Assembly (NCBI GenBank): GCA_944323445.1
Contig: CALUSM010000024.1
Span: 1 to 32,000 of the forward strand
Length of the DNA: 32,000 bases
Source of the DNA: an uncultured Bacteroidales bacterium
GTDB taxonomy: Bacteria > Bacteroidota > Bacteroidia > Bacteroidales > UBA932
Direction: 5' to 3'
Shown here: positions 2,928 to 30,312 of the stretch, piece by piece
Position numbering within the stretch: the first letter of the stretch is position 1
How the letters are laid out: the number at the start of each line of letters is the position of its first letter
Made by a program: the position numbers and the translations under genes
The notes under the pieces: generated by a model
What the model saw: the letters and a program-made list of their open reading frames with translations, nothing else
Told to the model about the DNA's origin: nothing
Databases searched by the model: none

Positions 2928-3170
2928 ATGGATTCTTCAATGTTAAAGACTCTTTGCTCCATTGACCATCTGCTGTCATCATGGGACATCATCAAAAGCA
3001 AAAATTCCTCCGGTGGTATTGACGGTGAAAGCATCTCCGAATTTGACAAAAATCTGAAAGACAACCTGCAGGAGCTGGCCGATGAGCTCTCAACCGGGAA
3101 ATGGATACCGCACCCATATCTCAAGATAGAGATTCCAAAGAATAAAATGGATTACTCGAAGCCAGAATAA
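2928..3170 (+). pseudogene. N-terminal fragment of the RT domain of an RT-Cas1 fusion, detached by an out-of-frame internal deletion
   Basis: The 80-aa ORF has group-II-intron-like RT N-terminal sequence (SSGGIDGESISEFDKNLKDNLQELADELSTGKWIPHPYLKIEIPKNK, i.e. RT motif 0 to the start of motif 1). It then hits TAA at 3168-3170. RT sequence resumes in another frame, open from 3146. Confidence 0.75.
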
Positions 3171-3202
3171 AATCTGTAATTACAGACGCAGAAATTGTAC
3201 GG

Positions 3203-4960
3203 TTGATTATGCTCTGCGTCAAGATGGGCGTAGTCACCAAAGGGATAAAATGGGATGACGTAGAGAAGGGTGTCCCTCAAGGAGCCGTACTGTCCCCGCT
3301 GCTGGCCAACCTTTACCTGCACTCAATGGACCAGCACATCATCTCACGTACTGCTGCGTACGTCAGATATGCCGATGACTTCATAATCCTGACAGAGACA
3401 GAAGAAACAGCCAAGGCAATCTGCTCTGATACCGAAACTTATCTTAAAGAAAAATTAAAACTTCCTCTGAATGAGCCGGCGATAACTCCACTCTCTGAAG
3501 GAGTCAAGTTTCTCGGTATCACCATAAAGAAAGACTCCTTCGGCATAAGTGAAGAAAAACGGTGCGAGATACTTGAGAAGATCTCCTCACTGAACCTCAG
3601 CAGCCGCGGGCTGGACCGCAGCAGTGCAAAAAAATGGTCCGGCATCATTGCCTACTACGGCCAGCTGCTTCCGGAGCCCGAGCTTCGGATGATTGACACC
3701 GCATTTCTCTCTTTTCTACAGCAGACTGTCACGGATGACTGGGATAAGTTCCCAAGCCGGAGCGCATTGCGGAAAACCCTGGACGAGTTTCATTTTCTCA
3801 GCGCCGACTTCCGGCTAAGAGAGAAAGACATAAAAATCACCTTGCTAAAATCGTATGCATCAGCGAAGAGAGACAACACCGGTGAGAGCATACAACTGAG
3901 CAACAAAAAAATCATTCTCAAACGCAAACGTGAATACCAGCTTAAAGAGGCTCAGAATTCAGAGCTCATAATCACCAAACCCGGTGTGACAGTAGGGCTT
4001 ACACAGAAAGGCATCACCGTAAAATCCAAAGGCAAGGTCATCAGTTCTTTTCCTCCTTCCAACCTGAAACACATAATAATCCTTTCAGACGGAGTAGGCC
4101 TTTCCAGCAATCTCCTCCGGCATACTCTCAAACACAAAATACCGGTAGACTTTTTCAATTATGACGGTGTGCATCTCGGTTCTTTTCTATCCGCTTCTTC
4201 TTTTCAATGCAGGCTGTGGCAGCATCAGTCAGAGGCAGGGAATATAAAACGGAACTTTCTGGCCGGCAAGATCATAGACGGGAAACTGAGCAACCAGCTC
4301 AATCTCATTAAATACTTTCACAAATATCACAAACTGTCATTGCCGGAGCTACAGACACATCTGGACAGCCTTGAATCCATAGTAGACAGACTCAGAGCAA
4401 CTCTTAAAAACGGGTCCCCGGAAATGCCGGACTTCATACCTGCAATTACAGCTCACGAAGCCAATGCTGCCGCAAAATACTGGGAATGTGTAAGATGTCT
4501 GTTATCAAACGATGATGTGGGCTTTGAGAAAAGAGTACATCAGCACGCCACAGATTTGGTCAACTGCCTCCTCAACTACGGTTATGCCATACTCTACACC
4601 AGATGTTGGCAGGCCCTGCTTGCCGCACAGCTCAACCCCTATGACAGCGTCATCCACGCCCGTCAGCCAGGGCAGCCGACATTTGCATTCGATTTCATCG
4701 AGATATTCAGAGCACAGGCTGTGGACAGAGTAGTCATCTCCATGATTCAGAAAAACGAGCCTCTGAGCATAACTGACGGCAGACTGTCAAAAGAGAGTAA
4801 GACACTCCTCATACGTAACATCTCCGAAAGGCTGTACAAACCGGAGAAATTCCGTAAAGAGAACATGAATCTGGCAAAAATCATCAAAGTTCAGGCTTCA
4901 GAAATCGCCGGATACTTCAATGACGGCAACAAGTTCAGGCCATATAAAGCAAAATGGTAA
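3203..4960 (+). CDS. cas1: RT-remnant (motifs 4-5 onward, thumb) fused to Cas1 integrase
   Basis: The 585-aa ORF starts at TTG in the track; its frame is open from 3146. RT motif 4 GVPQGAVLSPLLANLYL and motif 5 YVRYADDFIIL (YADD at 3368-3379) are present. The Cas1 domain runs from about aa 255 (nt ~3965): ELIITKPGVTVGL..., HEANAAAKYW, NCLLNYGYAILY, AFDFIEIFRAQAVDRVV. The stop overlaps the cas2 start. Confidence 0.85.
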   Translation: MIMLCVKMGVVTKGIKWDDVEKGVPQGAVLSPLLANLYLHSMDQHIISRTAAYVRYADDFIILTETEETAKAICSDTETYLKEKLKLPLNEPAITPLSEGVKFLGITIKKDSFGISEEKRCEILEKISSLNLSSRGLDRSSAKKWSGIIAYYGQLLPEPELRMIDTAFLSFLQQTVTDDWDKFPSRSALRKTLDEFHFLSADFRLREKDIKITLLKSYASAKRDNTGESIQLSNKKIILKRKREYQLKEAQNSELIITKPGVTVGLTQKGITVKSKGKVISSFPPSNLKHIIILSDGVGLSSNLLRHTLKHKIPVDFFNYDGVHLGSFLSASSFQCRLWQHQSEAGNIKRNFLAGKIIDGKLSNQLNLIKYFHKYHKLSLPELQTHLDSLESIVDRLRATLKNGSPEMPDFIPAITAHEANAAAKYWECVRCLLSNDDVGFEKRVHQHATDLVNCLLNYGYAILYTRCWQALLAAQLNPYDSVIHARQPGQPTFAFDFIEIFRAQAVDRVVISMIQKNEPLSITDGRLSKESKTLLIRNISERLYKPEKFRKENMNLAKIIKVQASEIAGYFNDGNKFRPYKAKW

Positions 4961-5250
4961 TGAGAGCAACTAAAAAATTCATCGTTGTCGCATACGACAT
5001 AAGCAATACCAAGCGCCGCAACCGCGTGGTAAAGATACTTAGGCAGTACGGCGTCCGGGTCAATCTCAGCGTCTTTGAGTGCATGCTTTCTGAGAGTCAG
5101 TTCGAAAATCTGAAAACGTCAGTCGCTGAGACCATCAACATCTCTCATGACAAAATCATTTACTACAGCCTATGTCTGGACTGCTACGCAAAAATCACCT
5201 ATATACCGAAAAAACAGGCAAATCCTATTTCCACAACTAATGTAATATAA
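4954..5250 (+). CDS. cas2: Cas2
   Basis: 98-aa ORF directly after cas1. FIVVAYDISNTKRRNRVVKILRQYGVRVNLSVFEC is a typical Cas2 N-terminal ferredoxin fold with the conserved Asp. The alternative start ATG at 4960 forms TAATG with the cas1 stop. Confidence 0.9.
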   Translation: MVMRATKKFIVVAYDISNTKRRNRVVKILRQYGVRVNLSVFECMLSESQFENLKTSVAETINISHDKIIYYSLCLDCYAKITYIPKKQANPISTTNVI

Positions 5251-5717
5251 AAACCGGATGGACTGCTATCATCCACATAACATTTGCGAAAAACCACTTT
5301 TGACCTATCTCTTCATTATTAAGGTATTATCTCCATTGCACCGTTTTTTGACCGAGCAGATTTTTTCGAAAGTCATTTTTTCAGGCTCTTTGCGATAGAG
5401 ATTTGCGAAAAGAAGCACGACCTAAAATGGCAACACTCTGATTACCAAAGTTCTTTCAACCATACTCATACTCTTTTTTTCGCAAATCGCCTCCGGCACA
5501 AACACTGCGCCTACATTTGCGAAATATTTTAATGCTATATCTATCTGATTATTAAGCGGCACTATAGCAAAGAGCCACTTAAATCTCTTGTTTTGCAAAT
5601 AAAAATTCATTACTTTTGCGAAGAAATGTTGAGAAGCGGAGGTAAATCTGTCGTTATCAACCTATTTTGTTCTTTGATCGTTTGAACAAAGAAACAAAAA
5701 CAGTTGAGAATCACATG
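5251..5717 (+). promoter_or_regulatory. CRISPR leader (AT-rich, non-coding, repeated ATTTGCGAAA motifs)
   Basis: 467-bp AT-rich gap between cas2 and the first intact repeat. Degenerate repeats lie at the opposite end of the array. It holds two exact TAnnTTTG boxes (5512-5519, 5611-5618) and at least 4 exact copies of ATTTGCGAAA. Confidence 0.7.
5611..5618 (+). promoter_or_regulatory. Candidate pre-crRNA promoter -7 box (TACTTTTG)
   Basis: Exact TAnnTTTG match about 100 nt upstream of repeat 1. A second exact match, TACATTTG, is at 5512-5519. Confidence 0.4.
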
Positions 5718-6456
5718 GTTTACCTTTTATCCATTAGAACAAGGATTAAGACTGCCTCAGCGAGGTTTGCGGCCTTACCGGAGAGGTGTTTACCTTTTAT
5801 CCATTAGAACAAGGATTAAGACACAAACGCTGAGCCTCGAGAGAGGTTCCGGCCACGGTGAGTTTACCTTTTATCCATTAGAACAAGGATTAAGACAAGA
5901 ACTGGTCGGGCATCTCACCTCCTTTGTAAAGTTTACCTTTTATCCATTAGAACAAGGATTAAGACGTTGAAATCAAACTCCTCCAAAGTTCCCTCACAGG
6001 AGTTTACCTTTTATCCATTAGAACAAGGATTAAGACATTATACTGCCTCGTCAGAGCCGAAGCTGAAACAGTTTACCTTTTATCCATTAGAACAAGGATT
6101 AAGACAAGCTCTTGTAGAGCTTTAAAGTTTTCTTTAGCCGTTTACCTTTTATCCATTAGAACAAGGATTAAGACAAAAAATTTTTAATGGTTACACAATA
6201 ATTATTCAGTTTACCTTTTATCCATTAGAACAAGGATTAAGACTCATCACCTTGAACTCACCTCTCGTCTCAGAATTGAGTTTACCTTTTATCCATTAGA
6301 ACAAGGATTAAGACGGCTGAACCGGTGTCCTTCAAAGGTATCGGGAAAGTTTACCTTTTATCCATTAGAACAAGGATTAATACAACTCTTCGATAATCAC
6401 TGAGTTAGCCCTAATAGTATCGTTTATCTTTTATCCATTAGAACAAGAACTTTGGT
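5718..6456 (+). CRISPR. CRISPR array, 11 repeats / 10 spacers, 35-bp repeat GTTTACCTTTTATCCATTAGAACAAGGATTAAGAC
   Basis: Repeats start at 5718, 5788, 5862, 5931, 6002, 6071, 6140, 6209, 6280, 6349 and 6422. Spacer lengths are 35, 39, 34, 36, 34, 34, 34, 36, 34 and 38 bp, all unique. Repeat 10 has a G->T change (..TTAATAC). Repeat 11 has C->T at position 6 and diverges after about 26 nt. Orientation is inferred from the leader position, the terminal-repeat decay and the 3' octamer ATTAAGAC, which resembles type III 5' tags. Confidence 0.97.
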
Positions 6457-6729
6457 TAATGATTATCCGCCAATGTTCCCCAGTAGATTTTTCCGGTTGG
6501 CGACAGCGTGATTCCGCTTCTTTTTCCCAAAAGGGATACAAATTAAAATGCATTATGCGATGAGAAGTATCGCATATTACAGACACTCGGAGAAAAATGA
6601 AGAATGCTTGTCCTCAGCATGTTGTCTACTTTGAAATCATATATAAATTCGCTAAGACTGAATGACATGGACAACAACCGAGTTTTTGAAATATACAAAC
6701 GGAGACTGGCTCACAGAAGATGATGAATA

Positions 6730-6766
6730 GCCGTACTGCCAAGCAATGATGCCTGAGCAGTACGGC
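6730..6766. terminator. Bidirectional terminator-like hairpin between the array and the convergent cmr6
   Basis: Perfect 10-bp stem GCCGTACTGC (6730-6739) / GCAGTACGGC (6757-6766) with a 17-nt loop. T-rich sequence follows on the + strand. It lies 12 nt beyond the cmr6 stop on the - strand. Confidence 0.55.
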
Positions 6767-6777
6767 GCTTGATTAAT

Positions 6778-7509
6778 TTATTTATTATTAGGCTCAACTT
6801 CCTTTAGTTCCTCTAGCCGGCCATAGCCGACGTTGGTTTTGGCCCCTATACCGTATGTCGTAAGAATCTTCTTGAACCACTCTTCCTTTTTATCTCTACA
6901 CTCCTTCTCCCCTGACAGGTGGAAACGGAATTCTATGGTGCAGCCGGGCGCTATCTTTGCAAAGGTGATGGGTATGGGTTCCTTGAAAGGGTCGTCCTGT
7001 GAATGCGGCGCAAGAGCATCCATCTCAAAGATTGTTTTTCTTTCCTCATTTTTATTTTTATCTCTGACAACAGATGCATCAAAAAAGATATCCCGCTCAT
7101 AGATGGATTTGGTGCTGCCGTCCGGCTTTTTACCCTCGAAAATATCCAGAATGGCGGCATTTATATCCGGATTCTGAAGGTCATACACCTGAGGGAAATA
7201 AGAGCGTAGCACACCCTTTACGGTCGAGCCGCTTATGATGGGCGTACCGTGAGTATAATCAAAATTGATTCCAAGCTTTATCTCTCCCTCAACCCCCATC
7301 TCGTGGCTGACCCCCACACCGGTTATCAGGCCGGGATAACAGACTTTCATTTTGAAATCGGCATTGACGTACTCTACCTTCTCTACCTCGCCTATATCCT
7401 TCGGAGTCAGGCCTGTGAGCTTCCTGTTAAGTCGGGTGATATTGCCGGAAGGCTTTATACCCTCCTCGAAATAATCCTTGTAGAAGAATTTATGCAGATT
7501 CTCGCTCAT
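6778..7509 (-). CDS. cmr6: Cmr6 (type III-B RAMP subunit)
   Basis: 243 aa. Motifs: PGLITGVG, GTPIISGSTVKGVLRSYF, and the C-terminal glycine loop YGIGAKTNVGYGRL. It is the last gene of the cmr operon and overlaps cmr5 by ATGA. Confidence 0.85.
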   Translation of the reverse strand: MSENLHKFFYKDYFEEGIKPSGNITRLNRKLTGLTPKDIGEVEKVEYVNADFKMKVCYPGLITGVGVSHEMGVEGEIKLGINFDYTHGTPIISGSTVKGVLRSYFPQVYDLQNPDINAAILDIFEGKKPDGSTKSIYERDIFFDASVVRDKNKNEERKTIFEMDALAPHSQDDPFKEPIPITFAKIAPGCTIEFRFHLSGEKECRDKKEEWFKKILTTYGIGAKTNVGYGRLEELKEVEPNNK

Positions 7510-7937
7510 GACTCTACCTGTTTATATGTTCTCACTACCAGTTTGAGCGCGATGGCACAGTCTATCATCTCCCGTTTAAGAGCGTTCTCGACTGCCTGGT
7601 CACATTTCGGCGTCTTGACAAAATCCTTCAATTCTGCAACGGATGATGGGAGCTTTACGTCATTTTTAGCATTGTTCTTAATCTTGGTGAATCCGTCCAT
7701 TTTCATCATCTTCAGCAGCACCTCCAGAATCACACCACGATTGACTTTGCCCGAGTCTTTGTCCTGGGCATAGATTATAATGGTGGGTTTCAGACCGCTC
7801 ATGGCAACAGAAACGGGGAAAGCAGACACGAGTCCGTCATACGAGGAGTTTATGGTCTTGTTTTTACTCAGCATACTGCTGCCGGCAAGCGCTTCATCCG
7901 CAATAGGTATCAGTTTGCTTATACGATTCTTATCCAT
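7506..7937 (-). CDS. cmr5: Cmr5 (type III-B small subunit)
   Basis: 143-aa protein with helical-looking sequence, sitting in the canonical position between cmr4 and cmr6. The call rests mainly on size and synteny. Confidence 0.65.
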   Translation of the reverse strand: MDKNRISKLIPIADEALAGSSMLSKNKTINSSYDGLVSAFPVSVAMSGLKPTIIIYAQDKDSGKVNRGVILEVLLKMMKMDGFTKIKNNAKNDVKLPSSVAELKDFVKTPKCDQAVENALKREMIDCAIALKLVVRTYKQVES

Positions 7938-7949
7938 AGTCTGTCCTCC

Positions 7950-8642
7950 CTATACTATCTTGGTTATCCTGCAATATCCGTATCCGATGGTAGCATTGGC
8001 GCCTATCTGCACCAGCGAACCGTCCAGAATCTCTGTAAACCCTCCTACATCCCCACTGGTAAAGAAATACAGTACGGTCTTCGAGGGCAGCACCTGCTCG
8101 TTCCATAGATTGGTACTGAGACCGTTTTCAAGGCAATTCCTGGCGACAATGGGCAGATTCTCGTTATCGCACGCAGTGACAAAACTATCATTACTCATCA
8201 CCGTCCGGTCAAGATGGAAAAAGTCCTCATACTCGTAGGGATCATTGGGAAAGTTATCCCATTCAATACCGAGCATCTTATTTCTCTGAAGAAACAAGTT
8301 CACAACCTGACGGCTCGTCTCATAGTGATACAGTTTGTTGTCGTCCTGAACCGGAAGGAACAGAATATGCGCATCGAAGAAGATTACATTTCCCTTCTGC
8401 TGCTTCTTGTTCTCACCGCATTTATCGGAGCCGAATATGTCTATCCTCGTCCCCGAATCAATTTTCTTGAATTTGGTAAAATACTCATTTATTGCTCCTT
8501 TAAGCGAGCTGGAATTGATGCAGGGAAGGTTAGTAAGGGGGTCGCGCTGTACCGCCTTGTCGATGATACCGTAGTTGGAGCTGTTCTCGTTGCCCACATG
8601 CAGATTGGTTTCGGCTGTTATAAGCCAGAGATGACTGTTCAT
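7950..8642 (-). CDS. cmr4: Cmr4 (type III-B backbone RAMP, target-RNA cleaving subunit)
   Basis: 230 aa. The N-terminus WLITAETNLHVGNENSSNYGIIDKAVQRDPLTNLPCINSSSLKGAINEYF fits the Cmr4/Csm3 pattern including the acidic catalytic position. C-terminal G-rich loop IGANATIGYGYCRI. Confidence 0.85.
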   Translation of the reverse strand: MNSHLWLITAETNLHVGNENSSNYGIIDKAVQRDPLTNLPCINSSSLKGAINEYFTKFKKIDSGTRIDIFGSDKCGENKKQQKGNVIFFDAHILFLPVQDDNKLYHYETSRQVVNLFLQRNKMLGIEWDNFPNDPYEYEDFFHLDRTVMSNDSFVTACDNENLPIVARNCLENGLSTNLWNEQVLPSKTVLYFFTSGDVGGFTEILDGSLVQIGANATIGYGYCRITKIV

Positions 8643-8657
8643 ATCGATTTGCGTTTT

Positions 8658-9791
8658 TTATAATTTGTCTATTCTGTATTGATTATATCCTATCTGACGG
8701 AAATTTTGCGCCGACTCAACGGCATCCACAAACTTCCGAGCATTCTCAGGTCCGGAAAAATAAAACACTGAGCCTGCGCTGAAAAGGTCGTACCGGGAAC
8801 TCTGCTTAAGTCCTCCGTCCGACACGTTATAAGACGTGGTCTTACGTACATCCGAGTTGAGGTGTCTGAAAGGAACCGTTTCAGTTATAGCAAAATCCGG
8901 CAGCGACATTGCATCACCTACCTTGATAAATGAGGGCGAAGTCAGCGATATCCTGACCGCAGTCGTCTGCTCTTCCTGCATAATGGATTCCGGCAGCCAG
9001 CTATCCGCCGGCTCAACGCCTATTCTGAACATGGAGTTGTCCGCCCCGACGGACACTGTCTCTCCATTGAAGGAAAGAATGTCCGCGCAGTCTTCCATCT
9101 CCACATAGAACGCGAACACATAGTAGGAGCCGTTGGCCTGCTTGGCAAAACGGTAATTGATCTGCTTGTACATAGCATTGTCGCCCACCTTTCCGGTATC
9201 CAGATCACGGCTGATGCCCATGCGCCGGTCCTCCGCAAACACCTTGCCCATACCTACTGTTTTTCCACTGCCAGATGCAATAAGATACCGGCCGTAAGCA
9301 TAGCCCTTCTTCTCCGGATAGTTCTGCTTCCGGATAAGGGCCGGAAGCACTTTTTGTTGTCCGTTATACCACCCGTTCTCCTGGCCGTTGCTGAAATCCA
9401 CATTGAACTCAGAGTCAAACGGAGCGGGGAAGAGATTCCTGCAGAAGTTCCCGTTCCCCTGATACTCCCGTATGAAGCACTCGGACAGACGGAGAATCTG
9501 ACCGTATCCGCTGCCTCTGTCGGCAGAGAAGCTGTGTCCGCCGATCAAGCTTAATGCTCCGTCCGGGTCAGTAATCTTACTCCCGTCGAAATATTTGCTG
9601 TGGCGCAGGAGGAAGAAGCGCATCATACCCAGCAGGGATGTCTGCTGAGGAAAATAACCGGACTTGATAATGTAGCTGATTTCAGGAGCGGATTTCTTCC
9701 CGTTTTCCTGAATGCCTGTCGAGAATTTCATCTCTCCTCCGAAGAAAAACTTATCCACCGGAGTCAATGTTATCAGATAATACTTACTCAT
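8658..9791 (-). CDS. cmr3: Cmr3
   Basis: 377 aa. The N-terminus YYLITLTPVDKFFFGGEMKF is Cmr3-like. It lies directly after cas10 with an 8-nt overlap. Confidence 0.8.
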   Translation of the reverse strand: MSKYYLITLTPVDKFFFGGEMKFSTGIQENGKKSAPEISYIIKSGYFPQQTSLLGMMRFFLLRHSKYFDGSKITDPDGALSLIGGHSFSADRGSGYGQILRLSECFIREYQGNGNFCRNLFPAPFDSEFNVDFSNGQENGWYNGQQKVLPALIRKQNYPEKKGYAYGRYLIASGSGKTVGMGKVFAEDRRMGISRDLDTGKVGDNAMYKQINYRFAKQANGSYYVFAFYVEMEDCADILSFNGETVSVGADNSMFRIGVEPADSWLPESIMQEEQTTAVRISLTSPSFIKVGDAMSLPDFAITETVPFRHLNSDVRKTTSYNVSDGGLKQSSRYDLFSAGSVFYFSGPENARKFVDAVESAQNFRQIGYNQYRIDKL

Positions 9792-11259
9792 CTTTCGGAT
9801 CCTCCCCTTTTATAAATTTTGCCGTGCGCATCGCACTGTAGAGCATCGCCTCGTATCCTTCTTTCGGAAAACAATCATAAAGGCGTTCCATCATTTCCCG
9901 GACTGCCGCATGATATGACGAACCTCTGTCCTCCAGGATTTTTTCAAAGAGCATTTTCAGACGTTCATCCCGCAAAGCAGCGTCCTTTGTTTTCAATACC
10001 TGCGTCATCAGGGCTGCGTTCTCGCGGAGCTTGTGAGCCACAGCCGAGACTGTATTGCCGTCTTTCGTCTCATCTATCAGGGCATAGAATGCTTTGGACA
10101 GATTCTCGTCAGAGTTTGAGAATGCCGCTTCGAAACCGCTGCCGCTGTGCTTTGTCAGTTTCCATGCCACAGCATTCTTTCCGGATATTCCCTTAGCCTT
10201 GTTCAGGAGCGAGTCCGCCAGTTCCAAAGCCTCGTAAAGCGGGAACTTGTAATAGGAAATGGACAGTCCATAGGACATGGATGCCCTGATCGTATTTCCG
10301 TCCTTTTTCAGTCCTATGCCATCAATTTCATTTTTCACACCTTTAAAACACTCGGTGCTTATCTCTTTCAACAGCCTGAAAATATCCGTTCCGTCCTCCC
10401 CAACCACAGGCGCAATGAAGAGCAGGTCGTCACCGCCCGCATAAATCGGCAGACCTCCGAAGCCCTTTATCTTCTCCGATGCCAGACGCCCGAAACACAA
10501 AAGCGCATCAGAAATCTGCTCCAACTTTCCTTGCGGCAGATCCGGATGCGTCACCGTCGCACCGACCGAGTCTCCGTCCGCCTTGACTACGCAGATATAC
10601 TTGTGATAGGATTTATAATCTTCCCCGAACGTTTCCTTATAGGCATTCTCTTCAGCCCCGTCATTGTTGAGTAGATTGCTGAACCTATTCCATATCCCAA
10701 CATTTTCTTTTTTCTTTGACACTGCAGCTATCTCTCCCAAGGACGGAATATGGTGAGTATCTTCTCCATATACAAGGAGGAACAGCGGTCTCTGATCCAA
10801 CACTATCTTCATTACTCCCTCAGACAACGATTCAGGCTTAGGGAAATTCATAAGTTCCAGCTTATTGAGGGCATCATTGAGCATCCGCACCGCAACAGAG
10901 TCCGAGCCCGCCTGAACAGTGGCATGCATGATGTTGAAATACTGCCGGTCCAACAGTATTTTTCCATCGATATTCAGACTTGTCGAGAATGTCTGCCAGG
11001 CTTTCTTCTCTATGTCCCCGGCATCTACTGCACCCCGCACGAACAGACGGTCAGGATACAGACCTACCCCCTGTCGGAGCACGGTCCACGGCACTTCTGC
11101 CGGTGAAAGGACGGTACCCTTGGGGACATTGTCGCAAATGCATTTCATCAGATATGAGAACATGTAGCTCGCGGCCCACAGTTCTCTCGGACGGCGGCCC
11201 ATGATGAATGTGGTATATATCGGGCCGATATTGAACGCTGTGTATGTATTCATCGCCAT
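9784..11259 (-). CDS. cas10: Cas10/Cmr2, minimal form lacking the HD nuclease domain; cyclase/polymerase GGDD motif intact
   Basis: The likely start is ATG 11259-11257 (MAMNTYTAFNIGPIY...), forming TAATG with the cmr1 stop; the track ORF extends to 11322. FNIGPIYTTFIMGRRPRELWAASYMFSYL is the conserved post-HD Cmr2 motif and begins at residue ~9, so no HD domain can precede it. Palm2: VVKADGDSVG ... PIYAGGDDLLFIAP (GGDD encoded at 10426-10437). SMSYGLSISYYKFPLYEAL follows. Confidence 0.9.
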   Translation of the reverse strand: MAMNTYTAFNIGPIYTTFIMGRRPRELWAASYMFSYLMKCICDNVPKGTVLSPAEVPWTVLRQGVGLYPDRLFVRGAVDAGDIEKKAWQTFSTSLNIDGKILLDRQYFNIMHATVQAGSDSVAVRMLNDALNKLELMNFPKPESLSEGVMKIVLDQRPLFLLVYGEDTHHIPSLGEIAAVSKKKENVGIWNRFSNLLNNDGAEENAYKETFGEDYKSYHKYICVVKADGDSVGATVTHPDLPQGKLEQISDALLCFGRLASEKIKGFGGLPIYAGGDDLLFIAPVVGEDGTDIFRLLKEISTECFKGVKNEIDGIGLKKDGNTIRASMSYGLSISYYKFPLYEALELADSLLNKAKGISGKNAVAWKLTKHSGSGFEAAFSNSDENLSKAFYALIDETKDGNTVSAVAHKLRENAALMTQVLKTKDAALRDERLKMLFEKILEDRGSSYHAAVREMMERLYDCFPKEGYEAMLYSAMRTAKFIKGEDPKDE

Positions 11260-12587
11260 TAGTTTTGTTTCGGTTTGCTTAAGATAACTTCTCCTTTTCC
11301 ATTGCTGATAATGTTTTCCCATTTAATGTTTTTAGGAATCATTCTATAGCCATTCTTCTTATGATAAGAATCTATTAACTTTTTATAATCAATATACCTC
11401 ATGTCTGTCGGCATTTCCAATACTTCCCTTGACTTCTTCCTACACTCAAATCTGAATTTAACCGTACCTTTATCCCTCATACACTTTATTTCATCTTCAT
11501 TAAATAAAATATAAACTACAACACTTCCGGAATTAAAGACAGGCTTGAAAATAATTGGAGATGCCAGCCTGTCTATCCCTTTATTATTAGTCACGGATAC
11601 GGTATATTGATTTCTGTTGTATGAGTATCCGTTTGACGGATACCCCAACAAAGCTCTCGCAAAGATTGCTGTTCTTCCAGAATCATCATATGTGTCTTTC
11701 TTTCGGCCAAAGAACAAATTAAATTTCGTTTTTATAGCTTTTTTATCCCATGTTCTCTCGGGATTTTCATCTCTTACAAATTGATACAAATAGGATTTGA
11801 CATACGCCCCGCTACGTGGGTAATTTATACCTGACTTCAACGCCCTCCAATAGTAATCTATAACAGAGAACGTTTTATAGAACATAGACTGAGCCGCCAT
11901 ATCCTGTTTTAATGTAAATTCAAAATACTGATAGTTTTTAAGACGTTCCTTTATGTCCTGATCTATTTGGCGCACCTGCTCTCCATCATCATCCTTAACC
12001 TTCCATACAGTAAAACTTCCGAAACCTTTATCTGACCTCTGTCCGAAATTGTTCAGAGCAAAAAACTCTACGATGTTGTCTTTTATCAACTTCCTCAAAT
12101 ATTTTTCTTTGTCGCGCAGAATTTCTACCCGACCTTCTTTTTTCACACAGATTGAAATATTGATACTCAGCTCTACTGTACGCATTCTTTCTTTATCTTC
12201 CTTAACTATGCACAAATCAACATGTTTCGGCTCCCGTCCCATTGTACTCAGCACTAAAGGATAATTCATGTTCTTCAGTGTCACCGAAGTGTCCCTACCT
12301 TGAGCGGATATCTGCATCCTGTAGTTCAGGGCATTGAAACCCTCCTTGCAGAATCTGTTCCTCAATGCCCTTTGTTTTTGCGGATTAGGTGAATAGCCTA
12401 CAAGCAATTCCTCGCATTGCTCAAACTTTCCCTCCCGAGTTGTCCCTGGGAGCTTACTGATCAGGAACCTGTCCAGCTTCGGCTTTACCTCGGTGGCACG
12501 CAGCGTGGCACCTTCGCTGTCATACTGAAAATGCAGCAGCGGGGTATGCTGGATGAGTTTTACGTTAATTTCATTCTCTTTTCCCAT
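11259..12587 (-). CDS. cmr1: Cmr1 (RAMP)
   Basis: 442 aa. N-terminus HTPLLHFQ...GATLRATEVKPKLDRF, and the RAMP glycine loop NNFGQRSDKGFGSFTV. It sits upstream of cas10 as in cmr operons. Confidence 0.7.
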   Translation of the reverse strand: MGKENEINVKLIQHTPLLHFQYDSEGATLRATEVKPKLDRFLISKLPGTTREGKFEQCEELLVGYSPNPQKQRALRNRFCKEGFNALNYRMQISAQGRDTSVTLKNMNYPLVLSTMGREPKHVDLCIVKEDKERMRTVELSINISICVKKEGRVEILRDKEKYLRKLIKDNIVEFFALNNFGQRSDKGFGSFTVWKVKDDDGEQVRQIDQDIKERLKNYQYFEFTLKQDMAAQSMFYKTFSVIDYYWRALKSGINYPRSGAYVKSYLYQFVRDENPERTWDKKAIKTKFNLFFGRKKDTYDDSGRTAIFARALLGYPSNGYSYNRNQYTVSVTNNKGIDRLASPIIFKPVFNSGSVVVYILFNEDEIKCMRDKGTVKFRFECRKKSREVLEMPTDMRYIDYKKLIDSYHKKNGYRMIPKNIKWENIISNGKGEVILSKPKQN

Positions 12588-12588
12588 A

Positions 12589-14871
12589 TCATTTATTTTT
12601 TTGTTTCATAAGATGACTGATTAAACATCCCAATCCGGCACTCAATACTACCACGACACCGAAATACCACCAGAAGTCTGGAATAACGTCATGCCACTTA
12701 TTCATACCCAGGAGTCCTGCAACTAAAGAACCGGGGAGGAAGAACGCAGCCAGCATGTTAAGCCATTCTCCATTCTTATTGCGCCTGCTGTCTATCCTCA
12801 GGTCTATATAGCGGTTCAGCTCGTCTATCTCTCCGTCAAGGGCTTTTATCTGACGCTCGGTGTCAAACTGCCTGGATATCATCTCGTACAGCTCGATACC
12901 CTGATCCTGGGTGGTGACGCTGCGGAAGTATATCTGATTGATAAAGCGGATATAGCCCAGATACAGAGATTTGATAGGTTCTTCTATTTCTTTCAAGTCC
13001 TTTTTCAGGTTTATGTCCCGACATAACTTGGTAACTTCTCCGGAGAACCTCAGAAGGGAGGCGCGCTGGACTATCATCAGCTCGAAGAGACGGGCATATA
13101 TCGTCCGCATGTGCATGGCGATGACACTGGTGGAAAAACCGCTCTCGTCAGTCAATGCCACAAGCGAGTACCTTGATACTCCGTACAAAGTGCCGTAGTC
13201 CTTCCAGCGGGTATATGTGCTCTCGGACAGAAGACGGTCCCTCATCTCCTTGTCCTGACAAGAAGGACAGTTTCCCTCATCCAAAAATACGAACTTGTAC
13301 CAAGAATTCTTAAAACTATCATATTCTGCTATTTTCTGTGACAGTTCTTTGTTTCCGTACCAACAGTTTACCAGCATGCGGTCATCCACCACCGGCACGA
13401 CATCCATATCGGGGAAGATATCGTGTATAAGATTGAGAATCATGGACGACACAGTCCATGTATCATCCACGCCTTTCCGTTTCTCATCCTGTATATAACA
13501 GTAACGGAAATCATCTTTATATCTGTCCTGAGCATCCGACTGCAGACCCCGTATACTGATTGACTTAGCCAGCTGGCTACGCTGCCAGTCATTGAATTCT
13601 CCGGCATTAGGAGGCATGACTCTTCTGCCGTACTGATTGATATTTCTGACATCGGCCTCACTTTTCTGACTCTCTTTCTTATTGGCAAGATACAAAGTGA
13701 GGACACCTATTCCTGTAGAATAAATATTGAGATTTATGGATTCTACTTTCAGTTCATACTTTTTGTCCTTTACTTCTATCTCATACTTCACATCACGGGC
13801 TTCCGGCTCAAGTCTCTCATAATGGCGGAGTATATTGTTTTTCTCATCCATACTGTCATACAGTACCGGATGCACAAATTCGAAAAAGTACTGCTTCTCA
13901 CCGAAAAGCTCCGAGGCCTCCTTCATGGCCATAACATCCCGCTGCGGCACGCCCTTCCTTATCCTGGCCCGCCTCCATACCTTCTGTCCCGGAACCTCCT
14001 TAAGGCCGGCCACATCATACCTGTCCGTAAAAAGCTTACTACCAGTATCCTTAAAGCCCCATTTGAACGGAAAATAGAAAACATGATAGCTGTAGACCTT
14101 CCAATAACCTTTGACCTCCTTTAAAATATCTTCTGTCTCCGTTTCTCCCTTTATGCCTACGCCCCAGTAACCGTCCTCGCCGCCTCCGCTGTACAGACCG
14201 TCCCTTCCCTCAGGGAAAATCTTTTTCCTGACTTCAGCTGCATCCTTGCCATAGTAGCAAAGCTCAGTATCAGTACAAATCACCAATGCGACATAGGGAT
14301 AAAGCCAGTCGGATATAACTGAGAACACTCCCTTGAGAGACTGATATTCTTTAGGAACATTCACAATAGTCAAATCCCCAACGGAATCCTTTTTCGGCAG
14401 AATCTCCTTTTTCACCGTCTTCTCTGTTTCCTTGTCTATTCCCTGAGCCCTCCTGTCTTCCCTACGGATGTCCTCCACCTCCTGCGCCGTCGCCCCCTCC
14501 TTCAACATTCCTGGGATATATCGGGTGTCATTTGCCGCCACAAGCCTCATCCTATGGTCCATCCGCACTCCGAGGATTTCCGCCACCTGCTCCAGCGAAG
14601 ATGGACGGCAGTCCGCATCTCCGTGATGGTCTATGGATGTATAGTTTTCAGGTATCCGGACATCTTCCCGAAGCTCCACTCCATAAATCTGATATTCCTG
14701 CCGGTCCCCATATTTCCGGAGTTCCTCCTCATAATTTATGAGCGAAGCACTGCTCCACGAAAGATTTTTGTCAGAATACAGCAGGCCATCTCCTCTTCTC
14801 GCTTCTAAAAGCTCCTTTATGGTACACATCTCCAGATCGTGTCCCCCGAGCAGAAATACTTTTTTCTTCAT
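12589..14871 (-). CDS. corA: CRISPR-associated membrane effector: DHH/DHHA1 (NrN-like) phosphodiesterase domain fused to a CorA-type domain (2 C-terminal TM helices, GMN motif)
   Basis: 760 aa, inside the cas operon; its start overlaps the cas6 stop as ATGA at 14868-14871. DHH-type signatures in order: GGHDLE (aa 9-14), IDHH (aa 80-83, nt 14623-14634), AANDT (aa 112-116), SGGGEDG (aa 228-234). The C-terminus is WLNMLAAFFLPGSLVAGLLGMNKW...FWWYFGVVVVLSAGLGCLISHL, with GMN at aa 722-724 (nt 12700-12708). Confidence 0.8.
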   Translation of the reverse strand: MKKKVFLLGGHDLEMCTIKELLEARRGDGLLYSDKNLSWSSASLINYEEELRKYGDRQEYQIYGVELREDVRIPENYTSIDHHGDADCRPSSLEQVAEILGVRMDHRMRLVAANDTRYIPGMLKEGATAQEVEDIRREDRRAQGIDKETEKTVKKEILPKKDSVGDLTIVNVPKEYQSLKGVFSVISDWLYPYVALVICTDTELCYYGKDAAEVRKKIFPEGRDGLYSGGGEDGYWGVGIKGETETEDILKEVKGYWKVYSYHVFYFPFKWGFKDTGSKLFTDRYDVAGLKEVPGQKVWRRARIRKGVPQRDVMAMKEASELFGEKQYFFEFVHPVLYDSMDEKNNILRHYERLEPEARDVKYEIEVKDKKYELKVESINLNIYSTGIGVLTLYLANKKESQKSEADVRNINQYGRRVMPPNAGEFNDWQRSQLAKSISIRGLQSDAQDRYKDDFRYCYIQDEKRKGVDDTWTVSSMILNLIHDIFPDMDVVPVVDDRMLVNCWYGNKELSQKIAEYDSFKNSWYKFVFLDEGNCPSCQDKEMRDRLLSESTYTRWKDYGTLYGVSRYSLVALTDESGFSTSVIAMHMRTIYARLFELMIVQRASLLRFSGEVTKLCRDINLKKDLKEIEEPIKSLYLGYIRFINQIYFRSVTTQDQGIELYEMISRQFDTERQIKALDGEIDELNRYIDLRIDSRRNKNGEWLNMLAAFFLPGSLVAGLLGMNKWHDVIPDFWWYFGVVVVLSAGLGCLISHLMKQKNK

Positions 14872-15542
14872 ATCCGTTCTATAGATTTTATTGTTCCGAA
14901 CCCCGTACTGACGCCCTTGCCCAGACCTATGCCGGATGGCAGCATGACATTGCTTTTGAATGATATGTCCAGGCCTATGAAACCGACGCCCTTGTAGGAC
15001 AGCCGGTGCTGTCTGTGCATATCTGAAATGCGGCAGACCACTTCATCCCCGAAGAACAGCCCTACTCCCTTGGCGAAACTCAGGATATTGCCGGTAAGGA
15101 TGTTCTCGAGGAAGGATAACTTGTCGACCAGACTCTCGATAGCGCTGTAAACCTTGTAGTTATCCTCATTGAGCGGAATCCAGCCCGACATCTCGTAGGA
15201 CACAGGCTCCTTCACTATAGCGACCTCGACAGTCTCCTCCCTCACCGAGTCGAGAAAAAGATCGACCGGATGTCCTCCCAATACTACCCGGCTGCTGTAG
15301 TTCGAGAAGTAATCCTGAAGTGCGGCACTGCCCTGCTCTATGCCGATGATCGCTGCACGGCCGTCCAGCACTTTGTACTGCACAAGAGGATAAGAGTACC
15401 TCAGGCCGTCACCTATATGATTGTGAAACATGACATTGTCCTGCTTAAGGCAGTTGATTACAGCTCCACGGAACCGTGGAATCCAGGACCTCGGGACAGT
15501 ATTTCCAAAAAGGACAGTAGTAATGGTGAGGTTCTTCTTCAT
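14868..15542 (-). CDS. cas6: Cas6 crRNA-processing endoribonuclease
   Basis: 224 aa. IPRFRGAVINCL...FHNH...LRYSYPLVQYKVLDGRAAIIGI is typical of the Bacteroidetes Cas6 family. C-terminal glycine-rich loop GIGLGKGVSTGFGTI. It is the first gene of the cmr operon. Confidence 0.8.
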   Translation of the reverse strand: MKKNLTITTVLFGNTVPRSWIPRFRGAVINCLKQDNVMFHNHIGDGLRYSYPLVQYKVLDGRAAIIGIEQGSAALQDYFSNYSSRVVLGGHPVDLFLDSVREETVEVAIVKEPVSYEMSGWIPLNEDNYKVYSAIESLVDKLSFLENILTGNILSFAKGVGLFFGDEVVCRISDMHRQHRLSYKGVGFIGLDISFKSNVMLPSGIGLGKGVSTGFGTIKSIERI

Positions 15543-21562: not shown

Positions 21563-21889
21563 CTACTCCGGCACGTAGATAATCTCCCCGTTCTCCAGCT
21601 CGTAGGCTATGCCCACGCGCTTCCCCCTCTGACCGGACTTGGACTGGTCCTCGGAAGGGGTGTAGCGGTCGATGTTCTGTCCCTGCTTGACGATGATCTC
21701 CATGTCCTCCTTGCCGGGGTTCTTGACCATCGTAAAGTCCTCGGGCGAAAGCATCTCGGTCATGTTGTAGCGGGTCACGAGGGCGACCATAAGGGCCACG
21801 GCGAAGACCATGGCCACGTCGAAGAGATTGCCCACCACGCTCATCGGGTCGTTCTCCTCGTCCCCTCCCAGCAGTCTTCTCCTCTTCAT
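21563..21889 (-). CDS. hmuV: DUF2149-family small membrane protein (HmuV-like)
   Basis: The probable start is ATG 21889-21887, forming ATGA with the hmuU stop. NDPMSVVGNLFDVAMVFAVALMVALV is DUF2149-like. It is the last gene of the hmu-type operon. Confidence 0.6.
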   Translation of the reverse strand: MKRRRLLGGDEENDPMSVVGNLFDVAMVFAVALMVALVTRYNMTEMLSPEDFTMVKNPGKEDMEIIVKQGQNIDRYTPSEDQSKSGQRGKRVGIAYELENGEIIYVPE

Positions 21890-22521
21890 CGCACTTCCTC
21901 CCCTGTCCTGGTTTCCACTTCCTGCGCACCGGCGCATCCGTTCAGCACCTCCGACACGAACTCCAGCCGGTTCAGGTCGCGGGTGTACCAGCGCTGCTTG
22001 ACCTGCTGGGTGATGAAGCCTATCGCGGCCGAGAATAGGCCCACGACGGTCGTAGCGAAGGCCACCTGCATGTTGTAGGCCATCGAGCCGATATCGCCGG
22101 TGGACAGGCCCACGAGAGCCGGGCCCATAGGAATCAGGGTACCCATCAGACCGAGCATAGGGCCCATCTTCGAGAGGGTCTTGGAGGTGCCTAAGTCCTT
22201 GTCAGCGGCTATCTCGTAGTCGGAGAGCAGCAGCTGGCGGTGCGCCCGGTCCTTCGTGGTGTCTAAAAGACCGGCCAAGCAGTTCAGCAGCGGGGACTTG
22301 GTATTGGCAGGCAGGGAAGCCCTCAACTCCCCGACGGTAGCCGGAGTCAGTGCCTCGACCTTGGTCATGAACAGGCGGTCCACCTTGCGTATCTGAAGGT
22401 ACTGTCCGAAGAAATTGCCGATCAGCAACAGCGACCGGAGGAAAAACAGGATCAGCAGGACCACTACCGGTACGAGCAGTCCGTTGGAAATCCAGAAGAG
22501 AACATCAGATATGTAGTTCAT
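21886..22521 (-). CDS. hmuU: MotA/TolQ/ExbB proton-channel family protein (HmuU-like)
   Basis: 211 aa. An N-terminal TM helix plus SKMGPMLGLMGTLIPMGPALVGL and AFATTVVGLFSAAIGF, as in ExbB/TolQ. Confidence 0.8.
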   Translation of the reverse strand: MNYISDVLFWISNGLLVPVVVLLILFFLRSLLLIGNFFGQYLQIRKVDRLFMTKVEALTPATVGELRASLPANTKSPLLNCLAGLLDTTKDRAHRQLLLSDYEIAADKDLGTSKTLSKMGPMLGLMGTLIPMGPALVGLSTGDIGSMAYNMQVAFATTVVGLFSAAIGFITQQVKQRWYTRDLNRLEFVSEVLNGCAGAQEVETRTGEEVR

Positions 22522-22537
22522 ACGTTTTTATATTTTA

Positions 22538-23251
22538 TTACTTTTTTAAATTATTGTTCGTTTTTAAAAATTTCCGGAAAGGCCGGGCCGTCCTCACGAA
22601 GGAGCCGGCCAGCACTCCGGCGGCAATAAGTCCCAGAACCCCGGCAAGAGCCCTCCAGTCCACCTCGCTCACCCCGGCCACGGCCGTCTGTCCGTTGACG
22701 GTGGCTATCACCGCCACTATCCCGGTCAGGGCATTGGTCAGGAAGAACATCTCCAGGCGGCTCTCCTTGTCGGGGAAAATCCAGCGCATCAGCCAGGCCC
22801 CTCCGGCTATCACCACGAAGACCACGGCGGCGGCACTCCAGGCAACTAAAGGGAAGGATACGCCCGGGAAGGCAAATATCAGATAGACTAAGAAGCTGAA
22901 CAGCACTCCGAATATCAGCACCCCCGGGAACCAGCGCAGGATGCGGTAGCCCCAGACGGTGGAAGCCTTCAGTTTCCCGGAGCTGAGCAGATGCACCGAC
23001 AGCAGGCAGAAGGAGATCTGGAGGATGACCTCGAGGGTGATGACCACCGAGGTGTCGAGCATCAGGTCCGGGTTGGCCAGCCAGGCCTCGATCTGGGAGC
23101 GGGACTGACGCACTGCCACCGGCCACATCAAACCGGTGAAAAGGGCGGCCGCGGCGGCATGGGCCAGGACCGACCACCACTTGTGCCAGGACTGCTTCAG
23201 CACGAAGTTGAAGCAGACCAGCACCATGAGCATAACGACTAGACTGTACAT
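22538..23251 (-). CDS. hmuT: Polytopic membrane protein (HmuT-like)
   Basis: 237 aa, about 6 hydrophobic helices, located between the CobN-like and ExbB-like genes as in hmuYRSTUV. Confidence 0.55.
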   Translation of the reverse strand: MYSLVVMLMVLVCFNFVLKQSWHKWWSVLAHAAAAALFTGLMWPVAVRQSRSQIEAWLANPDLMLDTSVVITLEVILQISFCLLSVHLLSSGKLKASTVWGYRILRWFPGVLIFGVLFSFLVYLIFAFPGVSFPLVAWSAAAVVFVVIAGGAWLMRWIFPDKESRLEMFFLTNALTGIVAVIATVNGQTAVAGVSEVDWRALAGVLGLIAAGVLAGSFVRTARPFRKFLKTNNNLKK

Positions 23252-23269
23252 AGGCAGAGTCCGGATGAT

Positions 23270-27466: not shown

Positions 27467-27484
27467 GCTGCGTTTTTATATTTT

Positions 27485-29626: not shown

Positions 29627-29628
29627 TG

Positions 29629-30312
29629 TCAGAATTCTAAGGGATATACGTAGTCAATGGTCATGAAGCCCTTGACCTTGCTGTCGTTCATGTAGTTGGT
29701 AAGCTGTATGGCCACCGCTTTGCCCTCCGCTGTTATCAGGACATAGACTTTGCCGGACATCGTGTATACGGGAGGCATGGTGGAGGTATCGACATTGAGC
29801 CATTTGGACAGTTCCGGATTGTACCAGGACGGGGCGTAGACAATGATACCGTCCATCATCCGGGACATGTCTATCGTGACGCGGTCCTCGGTCCAGATGT
29901 CCTCTACCCAGGTGCCCTGGGGCATGGAACCGGATGCGAGCAGGGCGTCTATCGAGGTGAAGGAGGTCTCGATGACCCGGCCGCCGTTGGTCTTGACGTC
30001 GTAGCGGTGCACGGCGAAGTCCCAGCCCTCAGTCACATCTCCTGTCTCGGAACCGTCCTCCGCTATGGCAGTGGTATCCAGGGCAAATGTCTCGAAGTCA
30101 ATGTAGTTCCACCGGGTGTAGGAGGTCGCGTCGAGGTATATCGTACCGGAGGACGTGGCCTGCTCCACCTTCGTAAAACCGAACTCATTGACCTCTACCG
30201 GCTCGTCGTAGATGCCCTCGAAGATCCCGTTGCACGAGGGGAGCGACACGGCCGTCAGGAGTGCCGCCCCCGCCTGCAACATTATCAGTAATGGCTTTGG
30301 GATTCTTTTCAT
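29629..30312 (-). CDS. hmuY: HmuY-family hemophore-like lipoprotein
   Basis: 227 aa. Lipobox LPSC (Cys27). The conserved HmuY core GWDFAVHRYDVKTNGG. It lies immediately upstream of the TonB-dependent receptor. Confidence 0.7.
   Translation of the reverse strand: MKRIPKPLLIMLQAGAALLTAVSLPSCNGIFEGIYDEPVEVNEFGFTKVEQATSSGTIYLDATSYTRWNYIDFETFALDTTAIAEDGSETGDVTEGWDFAVHRYDVKTNGGRVIETSFTSIDALLASGSMPQGTWVEDIWTEDRVTIDMSRMMDGIIVYAPSWYNPELSKWLNVDTSTMPPVYTMSGKVYVLITAEGKAVAIQLTNYMNDSKVKGFMTIDYVYPLEF

Follow-up and report, generated by a model that had tools for sequence, protein, structure and literature searches.

A compact type III-B (Cmr) locus of the CorA-1 class with an NrN-CorA fusion, predicted to signal through SAM-AMP, in an uncultured Bacteroidales bacterium

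The Cmr complex of Bacteroides fragilis, which lacks an HD nuclease, joins ATP to S-adenosylmethionine (SAM) to make SAM-AMP, and the product is bound by CorA (Chi et al., Nature 2023, PMC10600005). In the same species NrN hydrolyses only SAM-AMP and not cA2-6 or pApA; no CorA-1 Cas10 departs from D70 and E151, SAM-AMP is no longer made by the D70N/E151R double mutant, and the R152A/R153A and D219A/D220A variants of CorA lose immunity (PMC10600005). SAM is positioned near D70/E151 in structure 9LQ8 (PMC13294483), and both later surveys and the classification update of 2025 take the pairing of CorA with a SAM-AMP-cleaving enzyme to be the hallmark of the SAM-AMP pathway. Here we describe a CRISPR-Cas locus with these traits in a 32,000-nt stretch of an uncultured Bacteroidales genome (assembly GCA_944323445.1, contig CALUSM010000024.1, positions 1 to 32,000), referred to below in its full length as the window. 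Judged from its sequence, the locus (positions 2928–15542) appears to be a functional-looking type III-B (Cmr) system of the CorA-1/SAM-AMP class in a low-GC island, a reading to which we assign a probability of about 85%.

The effector operon and its predicted signal

The best, and usually the sole, solved relative of each of the six Cmr subunits encoded in the window was the SAM-AMP-making complex of B. fragilis (PDB 9LQ5-8). The matches to individual chains (E-values) were as follows:

Cas10 to 9lq5_B: 4e-35 with the single sequence, 2e-63 with a 28-sequence profile
Cmr1 to 9lq5_A: 2e-20, the only PDB relative
Cmr3 to 9lq5_C: 2e-28, the only PDB relative
Cmr4 to 9lq5_D: 7e-37
Cmr5 to 9lq5_G: 8e-7
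Cmr6 to 9lq5_I: 4e-32

The next-best PDB match of Cas10, Cmr2 of P. furiosus, reached 3e-23 with the profile. The Cas10 protein carries a GGDD motif at 275–278, and D228/D230, D70 and E135 are likewise invariant. It lacks the HD nuclease: no HD profile matched the protein, the HD-less B. fragilis Cas10 begins (residue 1) opposite its residues 3–5, and just 21 codons of the open reading frame (ORF) lie upstream of the start. The first of the two acidic residues of the SAM pocket, D70, is conserved in place (LYPDR here vs. LFPDR in B. fragilis), while E135 corresponds to B. fragilis E151 in the profile alignment, in a stretch of weak similarity. A second comparison was made on 55 sequences, the window protein and 54 Cas10s adjoining corA in species-representative genomes. 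The Cas10 of Bacteroides hominis, which contains GAGLFPDRYIFKSEP and EKYLNIIENQETFPEQ 81 residues apart and is locally identical to the B. fragilis protein, places its equivalents of D70 and E151 in the same alignment columns as D70 and E135 of the window. These acceptor-site columns hold D in 55/55 and E in 54/55 proteins, the exception being D, and GGDD is invariant save for one D-to-E substitution. In Cmr4, D28 aligns with D27 of B. fragilis, the residue responsible for the RNase activity of that protein and replaced by Ala in 9lq6_D; a phenotype of D27A has been described (PMC10600005). All residues tested by mutation in B. fragilis are conserved here, as is every sequence feature used in the literature to part SAM-AMP from cyclic oligoadenylate (cOA) Cmr systems.

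Gene identities were assigned by Pfam, NCBIfam and PADLOC profile searches of the window ORFs. The effector operon, from its first gene to the hairpin behind its last, comprises:

14868–15542, minus strand: cas6 (Cas6b type, 224 aa), first gene of the operon; Pfam Cas6b_N 2e-22 and Cas6b_C 5e-31, PADLOC Cas6 3e-47
12589–14871, minus strand: nrn-corA fusion (760 aa); PADLOC DHH_CorA 5e-58 and CorA 2e-112
11259–12587, minus strand: cmr1 (442 aa); PADLOC Cmr1 2e-64
9784–11259, minus strand: cas10/cmr2 (491 aa from the TAATG start); TIGR02577 99 bits (cut-off 79.4), Pfam Cas10-Cmr2_palm2 1e-20
8658–9791, minus strand: cmr3 (Cas5-like, 377 aa); Pfam Cas_Cmr3 1e-13
7950–8642, minus strand: cmr4 (Cas7 backbone RNase, 230 aa); TIGR02580 116 bits (cut-off 87)
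7506–7937, minus strand: cmr5 (Cas11 small subunit, 143 aa); PADLOC Cmr5 1e-20
6778–7509, minus strand: cmr6 (243 aa), last gene of the operon; TIGR01898 100 bits (cut-off 51)
6730–6766, no strand assigned: candidate bidirectional terminator, a 10-bp G+C-rich hairpin GCCGTACTGC / GCAGTACGGC with a 17-nt loop, read from the sequence, with a putative function

Cas10 and Cmr1, Cmr3, Cmr4, Cmr5 and Cmr6 are thus all encoded in one operon, each with a profile match. Cmr3 (61 bits vs. a cut-off of 100) and Cmr5 (Pfam 19.8 vs. 21) fall below curated cut-offs; the PADLOC and PDB matches support both. The 442-aa ORF has no Pfam match, and its interpretation as a protein other than Cmr1 was ruled out by the PADLOC Cmr1 match together with that to 9lq5_A. 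Coupling of the genes is tight: cas6 and the fusion gene overlap in ATGA (14868–14871), as do cmr5 and cmr6 (7506–7509), cmr1 and cas10 meet in TAATG (11257–11261), cas10 and cmr3 overlap by 8 nt (9784–9791), and a single nucleotide separates the fusion gene from cmr1. The operon (minus strand) converges with the CRISPR array (plus strand), which lies behind RT-cas1/cas2, and a deoxynucleoside kinase (dNK) gene stands divergently upstream of cas6. The hairpin GCCGTACTGC/GCAGTACGGC lies 11 nt past the cmr6 stop codon, between the convergent operon and array.

Across the 32 kb, profile searches (Pfam, NCBIfam, PADLOC) of the ORFs that reach 80 aa or more, and of the listed short ORFs around the array (at least 30 aa), gave no match to CARF, SAVED, ring-nuclease or HD-nuclease families. 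As the operon starts at the divergent dNK gene and ends facing the convergent array, co-transcription of a CARF gene with it from outside the window, which the initial annotation had named among the observations that would speak against its proposal, is excluded for the cmr operon. The other claims of that annotation about the effector side were borne out as well, namely the presence of cas6, cmr1, cas10 and cmr3-6 at these coordinates, the four coupled junctions (exact in the sequence), the convergence on the array, the lack of a CARF/SAVED effector in any ORF searched, and a Cas10 devoid of HD. Its assignment of the locus to the SAM-AMP rather than the cOA class agrees with all tests that could be made at this level. 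With the class-defining residues present, no CARF or SAVED protein in 32 kb and an operon bounded inside the window, predicted SAM-AMP signalling to NrN-CorA is well supported.

We infer the chemical product, the gating of CorA, the repeat-derived handle and the promoter in the following scheme. The array would be transcribed from the leader and its repeats cut by Cas6b, leaving a predicted 8-nt handle AUUAAGAC, and Cmr1-6 would assemble on the resulting CRISPR RNA (crRNA). Binding of a complementary foreign transcript would activate the HD-less Cas10, which would join ATP at the GGDD donor site to SAM in the acidic acceptor pocket (D70, E135) to give SAM-AMP. The cytoplasmic sensor of CorA (region of R416/R417 and D496/D497) would bind SAM-AMP, and the pentameric GMN-type pore would be opened or perturbed, leading to membrane depolarisation and growth arrest. 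Cleavage of the target RNA by Cmr4 (D28) would switch Cas10 off, while the N-terminal NrN of each CorA subunit would hydrolyse SAM-AMP into SAM plus AMP, which would reset the channel or keep it from desensitising.

The initial annotation had also described Cmr4, Cmr6 and Cas10 as short. Their lengths (230, 243 and 491 aa) are correct and below those of B. fragilis, yet they are typical of the clade. Three starts are available for Cas10, at 11322 (512 aa), 11259 (491 aa, with the TAATG coupling) and 11253 (489 aa). The 512-aa version is disfavoured by gene calls of homologues (488–491 aa) and by the B. fragilis alignment, which favour 11259 or the Met two codons on. Loss of a domain was considered as the cause of the short Cas10 and rejected: the profile alignment shows distributed loop shortenings only, and the closest 120 homologues are mostly 460–500 aa long. 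By these alignments, the short subunits are a clade trait that arises through distributed loop shortening relative to B. fragilis and not through domain loss.

The NrN-CorA fusion and its relatives

The 760-aa protein encoded between cas6 and cmr1 comprises an NrN DHH phosphodiesterase (about residues 1–255), a sensor of the CRISPR-type CorA (about 256–700) and two transmembrane helices with GMN (about 703–757). Residues 3–253 match the PADLOC family "DHH family hydrolase, CorA associated" and residues 259–742 the CRISPR-type CorA, with the values given above. With the NrN of B. fragilis, for which structures are solved (9LQ9-9LQC; 9lq9 at 1e-53 over residues 2–253), the NrN domain shares about 50% identity. 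Its DHH motif at 81–83 is intact and GGHDLEM is conserved, the Glu of which is mutated in one deposited structure. The CorA part resembles a CorA channel, with GMN at 722–724 and two hydrophobic C-terminal segments. Numbered from its MIYSYH start, the CorA of B. hominis has R152 and R153 in QYGRRIMPP and D219 and D220 in IIDDRMFV, which fits the published numbering, and R416/R417 and D496/D497 of the window protein align to these two pairs of the B. fragilis-like protein. Both pairs are invariant in 24 diverse homologues. The effector is a CorA-1-type protein carrying the RR and DD pairs needed for immunity in B. fragilis. As NrN and CorA reside in one polypeptide, the single ancillary gene encodes both the effector and the enzyme that would destroy its ligand. 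The initial annotation had listed this gene as the sole ancillary gene and as CorA-type; one gene it is, and the CorA assignment held, but its fused partner is NrN, so that two ancillary functions are present.

The fusion may also have a mechanistic meaning, with NrN being more than a diffusible off-switch: the ligand bound by a pore subunit would be hydrolysed in cis by that same subunit, so that depolarisation would come as a self-timed pulse. If true, such gating would explain why NrN in B. fragilis is needed for immunity and suppresses CorA toxicity.

Relatives of the fusion protein fall into more than 500 homologous clusters, and its top matches are nearly all about 760 aa long. In a scan of one genome per species at least 116 relatives were found, and 80 loci were kept, nearly all of them from Bacteroidota, including Parabacteroides, Bacteroides, Phocaeicola, Xylanibacter muris, Tannerella, Prolixibacteraceae and Saprospiraceae. 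Wherever the contig was long enough, corA (with nrn upstream in most) was followed by cmr1, cas10, cmr3, cmr4, (cmr5) and cmr6. Both NrN and CorA were present in 63 loci (within L011-L090), as a single-ORF fusion in 14 and as adjacent separate genes in 49; no NrN was detected within the fetched DNA of 17 further CorA loci. A fusion frequency taken from the tblastn matches proved misleading, and the ORF-level check found nrn and corA separate in most genome loci. The CorA-linked class is therefore common and not rare in Bacteroidota, with true fusions as a minority, and the earlier view of it as small and little studied does not hold given these counts, papers from 2023–2026 and solved structures.

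The exact NrN-CorA sequence recurs on 23 contigs from metagenomes; six loci were fetched from these (L001-L006), and all carry the same locus. The 90%-identity cluster of this protein (P0287) also has a 471-aa member on 12 contigs, which could be a truncated or frameshifted allele in some populations. A CRISPR locus stands at the same site next to dNK in L091 (96% NrN-CorA identity) and L009 (73% Cas10 identity), while the 87%-identical system of L007 has a different genomic context. In the sister system of L007 and L008, cas6 lies on the far side of the array, and three extra genes precede nrn-corA (L007 4505–6281, L008 131–1907), encoding a 297-aa protein without Pfam match, a DUF4325 protein and a PIN-domain protein; these could be further accessory genes of the clade.

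A disrupted adaptation module, its array and a conserved leader element

The plus-strand half of the locus consists of the following features:

2928–3170, plus strand: RT-cas1 5' fragment (80 aa, N-terminus of the reverse transcriptase, RT); TIGR04416 positions 3–62
3203–4960, plus strand: RT-cas1 3' part (585-aa ORF) with RT motifs 4–7, including YADD, and the complete Cas1
4954–5250, plus strand: cas2 (98 aa); Pfam CRISPR_Cas2 3e-21, TIGR01573 6e-15
5251–5717, plus strand: A+T-rich leader (467 nt) with five copies of TTTGCGAA
5718–6455, plus strand: CRISPR array of 11 repeats (35 nt) GTTTACCTTTTATCCATTAGAACAAGGATTAAGAC, the last degenerate, and 10 spacers of 34–39 nt

Protein and DNA alignments to intact sister genes placed a 232-nt deletion in RT-cas1 after position 3147 (junction 3147/3148). 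It shifts the frame and removes residues ~74–154, that is, RT motifs 1–3 including the LDIDNYFDNI aspartate box. On the NCBIfam group II intron RT model the 80-aa ORF covers positions 3–62 and the start of the 585-aa ORF positions 159–272; Pfam RVT_1 is matched by the latter at positions 116–205 only. A complete in-frame RT domain (motifs 1–7) joined to Cas1 is hence not found in the window. The Cas1 domain (residues 255–579 of the 585-aa ORF) is intact (Pfam Cas_Cas1 2e-60; TIGR00287 204 bits), and from residue ~170 on this ORF is 92% identical to the intact 751/755-aa RT-Cas1 of L007/L008. Single intact RT-cas1 genes of 750–755 aa are present in these two sister loci (87% Cas10 identity) and in L091. 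By contrast, RT-cas1 is split in all six fetched copies of the lineage; by DNA alignment L006 has the same deletion plus a further 18-nt loss. Thus, of the RT-cas1/cas2 module that the initial annotation attributed to the locus, the Cas1 domain and Cas2 stand, whereas RT-cas1 as a whole is broken.

By these alignments the deletion has cost the module its RT function. With motifs 1–3 gone and the frame split, capture of RNA-derived spacers should be lost, while DNA spacers are probably still integrated via the Cas1 domain and Cas2; RT-active-site mutants of RT-Cas1 reportedly still take up DNA spacers. Comparison of the arrays bears on this point. The same ten spacers as in the window are found in five of the six fetched metagenome copies (L001-L005). 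L006 (array at ~11.6–12.2 kb) also has the RT deletion, and its NrN-CorA is identical, but a single spacer, the one at the trailer end, is common to both arrays (window spacer 10, L006 spacer 8), and the remaining spacers, 9 in the window vs. 7 in L006, differ. Read most simply, spacer gain followed the RT deletion, which would imply acquisition of DNA-derived spacers by Cas1-Cas2 alone; alternatively, the differences come from recombination of arrays, or of the deletion, between strains.

The orientation of the array is deduced from its degenerate terminal repeat and the position of the leader. The repeat GTTTACCTTTTATCCATTAGAACAAGGATTAAGAC shows no significant fold (z = -0.43), but an unstructured repeat is expected of Cas6b substrates and is therefore not evidence against function. 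The ten spacers, joined as one query, had no match in 50,697 GenBank phage records (blastn, E up to 1), and the 24-nt cores of spacers 1–3 had no exact match in IMG/VR. With as many as 5 mismatches allowed, the window contained no self-target, and among the fetched loci from L006 onward (the near-identical L001-L005 being set aside) the only hit was the copy of spacer 10 in the L006 array. A period-140 repeat reported by Tandem Repeats Finder hinted at related spacers; pairwise comparison showed no real spacer similarity. Rfam at the gathering threshold gave nothing in the 32 kb.

The leader contains all five copies of TTTGCGAA found in the 32 kb, at 5283, 5402, 5479 (minus strand), 5516 and 5615, compared with 0.92 expected; 0/100 shuffles reached five. 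Clusters of the motif recur in 19 related loci of several genera, the leaders with it including also those of L007, L015, L022, L024, L028, L036, L039, L041, L043, L046, L052, L056, L063 and L069, and the rest of the leader sequence, and even the repeats, diverge among these loci. A plus-strand copy lies ~96–103 nt upstream of the first repeat in 17 of 18 loci with a locatable array; in Xylanibacter muris it lies at 116 nt. An inverted pair, TTCGCAAA and TTTGCGAA separated by ~29 nt, is conserved ~200–240 nt upstream of the first repeat. The context of the proximal copy is TAnnTTTGCGAA; in a leader alignment of 13 loci this copy reads T-A-n-n-T-T-T-G-C-G-A-A, with TTG ~22 nt upstream, and it resembles the TAnnTTTG -7 box of Bacteroides. 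The proximal copy probably serves as promoter of the pre-crRNA, and the inverted pair may be a site for a regulator or for integration host factor.

The RT-deleted lineage may offer a natural experiment, in which spacer acquisition is guided by an undescribed leader element (TTTGCGAA at about -100 and the inverted pair at about -200 to -240). We put forward only tentatively, and with more doubt than belief, both proposals, that the fused NrN is part of channel gating and that this lineage is still acquiring spacers under the guidance of the conserved leader element.

Rival readings and comparison with known systems

One rival reading is that this Cas10 produces a cOA or another nucleotide, sensed by this variant of CorA. 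CorA families may differ in their ligand, cOA-type sensing has been speculated for an Actinomyces CorA clade that co-occurs with Csm6-2 (PMC11229360), and outside the palm the Cas10 is only ~30–35% identical to the B. fragilis enzyme. The Actinomyces clade, however, lacks SAM-AMP-degrading enzymes and has Csm6-2, neither of which holds here; both acidic residues of the SAM pocket are kept, the effector is fused to NrN, an enzyme that in B. fragilis leaves cA2-6 and pApA uncleaved, and the window has no CARF, SAVED or ring-nuclease gene. We consider this reading very improbable. A similarly slight chance is given to mixed signalling, in which CARF/SAVED effectors elsewhere in the genome would answer minor cOA or pppApA-type products of Cas10. 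[quoted passage not shown] Yet no such effector lies within ~13 kb on one side and 16 kb on the other, and in surveys a locus generally relies on one signal, with the CorA-1 type paired with SAM-AMP-degrading enzymes (PMC11229360).

It is also conceivable that the locus is a decaying remnant, with the deletion in RT-cas1 as its earliest visible lesion and no selection left on interference. The frameshifting deletion shared by all six lineage copies, the 10-spacer array identical in five of them and the lack of a protospacer match would fit such decay. Against it, the eight ORFs for effector and processing proteins all have their full length and are coupled in translation, every catalytic or ligand residue that was checked is intact, and so are the Cas1 domain and Cas2; in addition, one strain that has this deletion, and whose NrN-CorA is 100% identical, has just the oldest spacer in common with the window, implying that spacers were gained recently. 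Decay of the locus therefore seems improbable to us.

Several points nevertheless weigh against a functional CorA-1/SAM-AMP system as we read it. Product specificity is deduced from two residues and the associated effector, and the equivalence of E135 to E151, in a weakly aligned stretch, is argued from family-wide invariance and the bridging B. hominis sequence. The complex is ~13% smaller than that of B. fragilis (Cas10 491 vs. 600 aa), so details could differ. Effectors encoded beyond the 32-kb window may exist, no spacer target was found in the searches above, and the identical array in five of six metagenome copies, taken with the deleted RT, also fits a lineage that no longer adapts.

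The locus lies in an island of ~39–50% GC (3–15 kb) between flanks of housekeeping genes with 52–64%, which suggests its horizontal acquisition. By a PanD cluster the host is placed near Candidatus Coprenecus (Rikenellaceae). Two genes stand directly upstream of RT-cas1 on the same strand (275–2847). One encodes a 523-aa AAA-ATPase/PD-(D/E)XK protein and the other AbiD/Abi_2, a protein of abortive infection with 297 aa; the pair and the CRISPR locus make up a small defence island. The right flank carries dNK, 2-oxoacid:ferredoxin oxidoreductase, panC/panD and a haem-uptake-like cluster. The latter haem/metal uptake-like genes (21563–31146, minus strand), unrelated to the CRISPR locus, encode DUF2149, MotA/ExbB, a CobN-like chelatase (1398 aa), a TonB-dependent receptor, HmuY and a calycin-like protein.

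Among described systems the closest is Cmr/CorA/NrN of B. fragilis (structures 9LQ5-9LQC), which shares with the window cas6b, cmr1-6, an HD-less GGDD Cas10, the absence of a CARF effector, the SAM-pocket residues (D70/E151 there, D70/E135 here), the Cmr4 Asp, the DHH of NrN and the RR/DD pairs of CorA. The two differ in that nrn and corA, fused here, make two genes in B. fragilis as well as in the closely related B. hominis, that the large subunits of the window are all shorter (Cas10 491 vs. 600, Cmr4 230 vs. 279, Cmr6 243 vs. 314, Cmr3 377 vs. 423 aa) and only ~30–50% identical, and that the adaptation module of the window, unlike that of B. fragilis, is an RT-Cas1 fusion with a deleted RT. 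The arrangement, a Cas1 domain fused to the rear of a group-II-intron-like RT with cas2 and the array next in line, is that reportedly found in the RT-Cas1/Cas2 modules of other type III systems, such as Marinomonas mediterranea.

CorA-1 loci with nrn-corA fusions (Aliarcobacter butzleri) and with RT-cas1 appear in Fig. 1b of PMC10600005, where Shah et al. 2019 is cited. By their published gene layout the A. butzleri-type loci likewise encode one NrN and CorA polypeptide next to cmr, some with RT-cas1, but they belong to Campylobacterota and the window to Bacteroidota. The type III-D2 CorA system, which makes SAM-AMP and SAM-AMP2, also has a Cas10 that joins SAM and ATP and a CorA effector; it differs from the classical Cmr1-6 set of the window in its Cas7x3, Cas7-5 architecture and in a toxin-antitoxin module in place of NrN, its CorA is only ~15% identical to the III-B type, and a tryptophan of Cas7-5, which Cmr systems lack, is required for making SAM-AMP2 (PMC13294483).

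The locus is therefore a further example and not a new system, as the pathway, the fusion and the link to RT-cas1 are already published (PMC10600005). Its value lies in being a compact version of the B. fragilis complex with sensor, pore and signal-degrading enzyme in one polypeptide, from a widespread clade of gut Bacteroidales, which could suit structural work on the gating of CorA by SAM-AMP and on the requirement for NrN. Beyond B. fragilis, the comparison adds that D and E of the SAM pocket are essentially invariant across the CorA-linked Cas10s from Bacteroidota, and small leads on adaptation come from the RT deletion, after which spacer turnover seems to have gone on, and from the leader motif conserved between loci.

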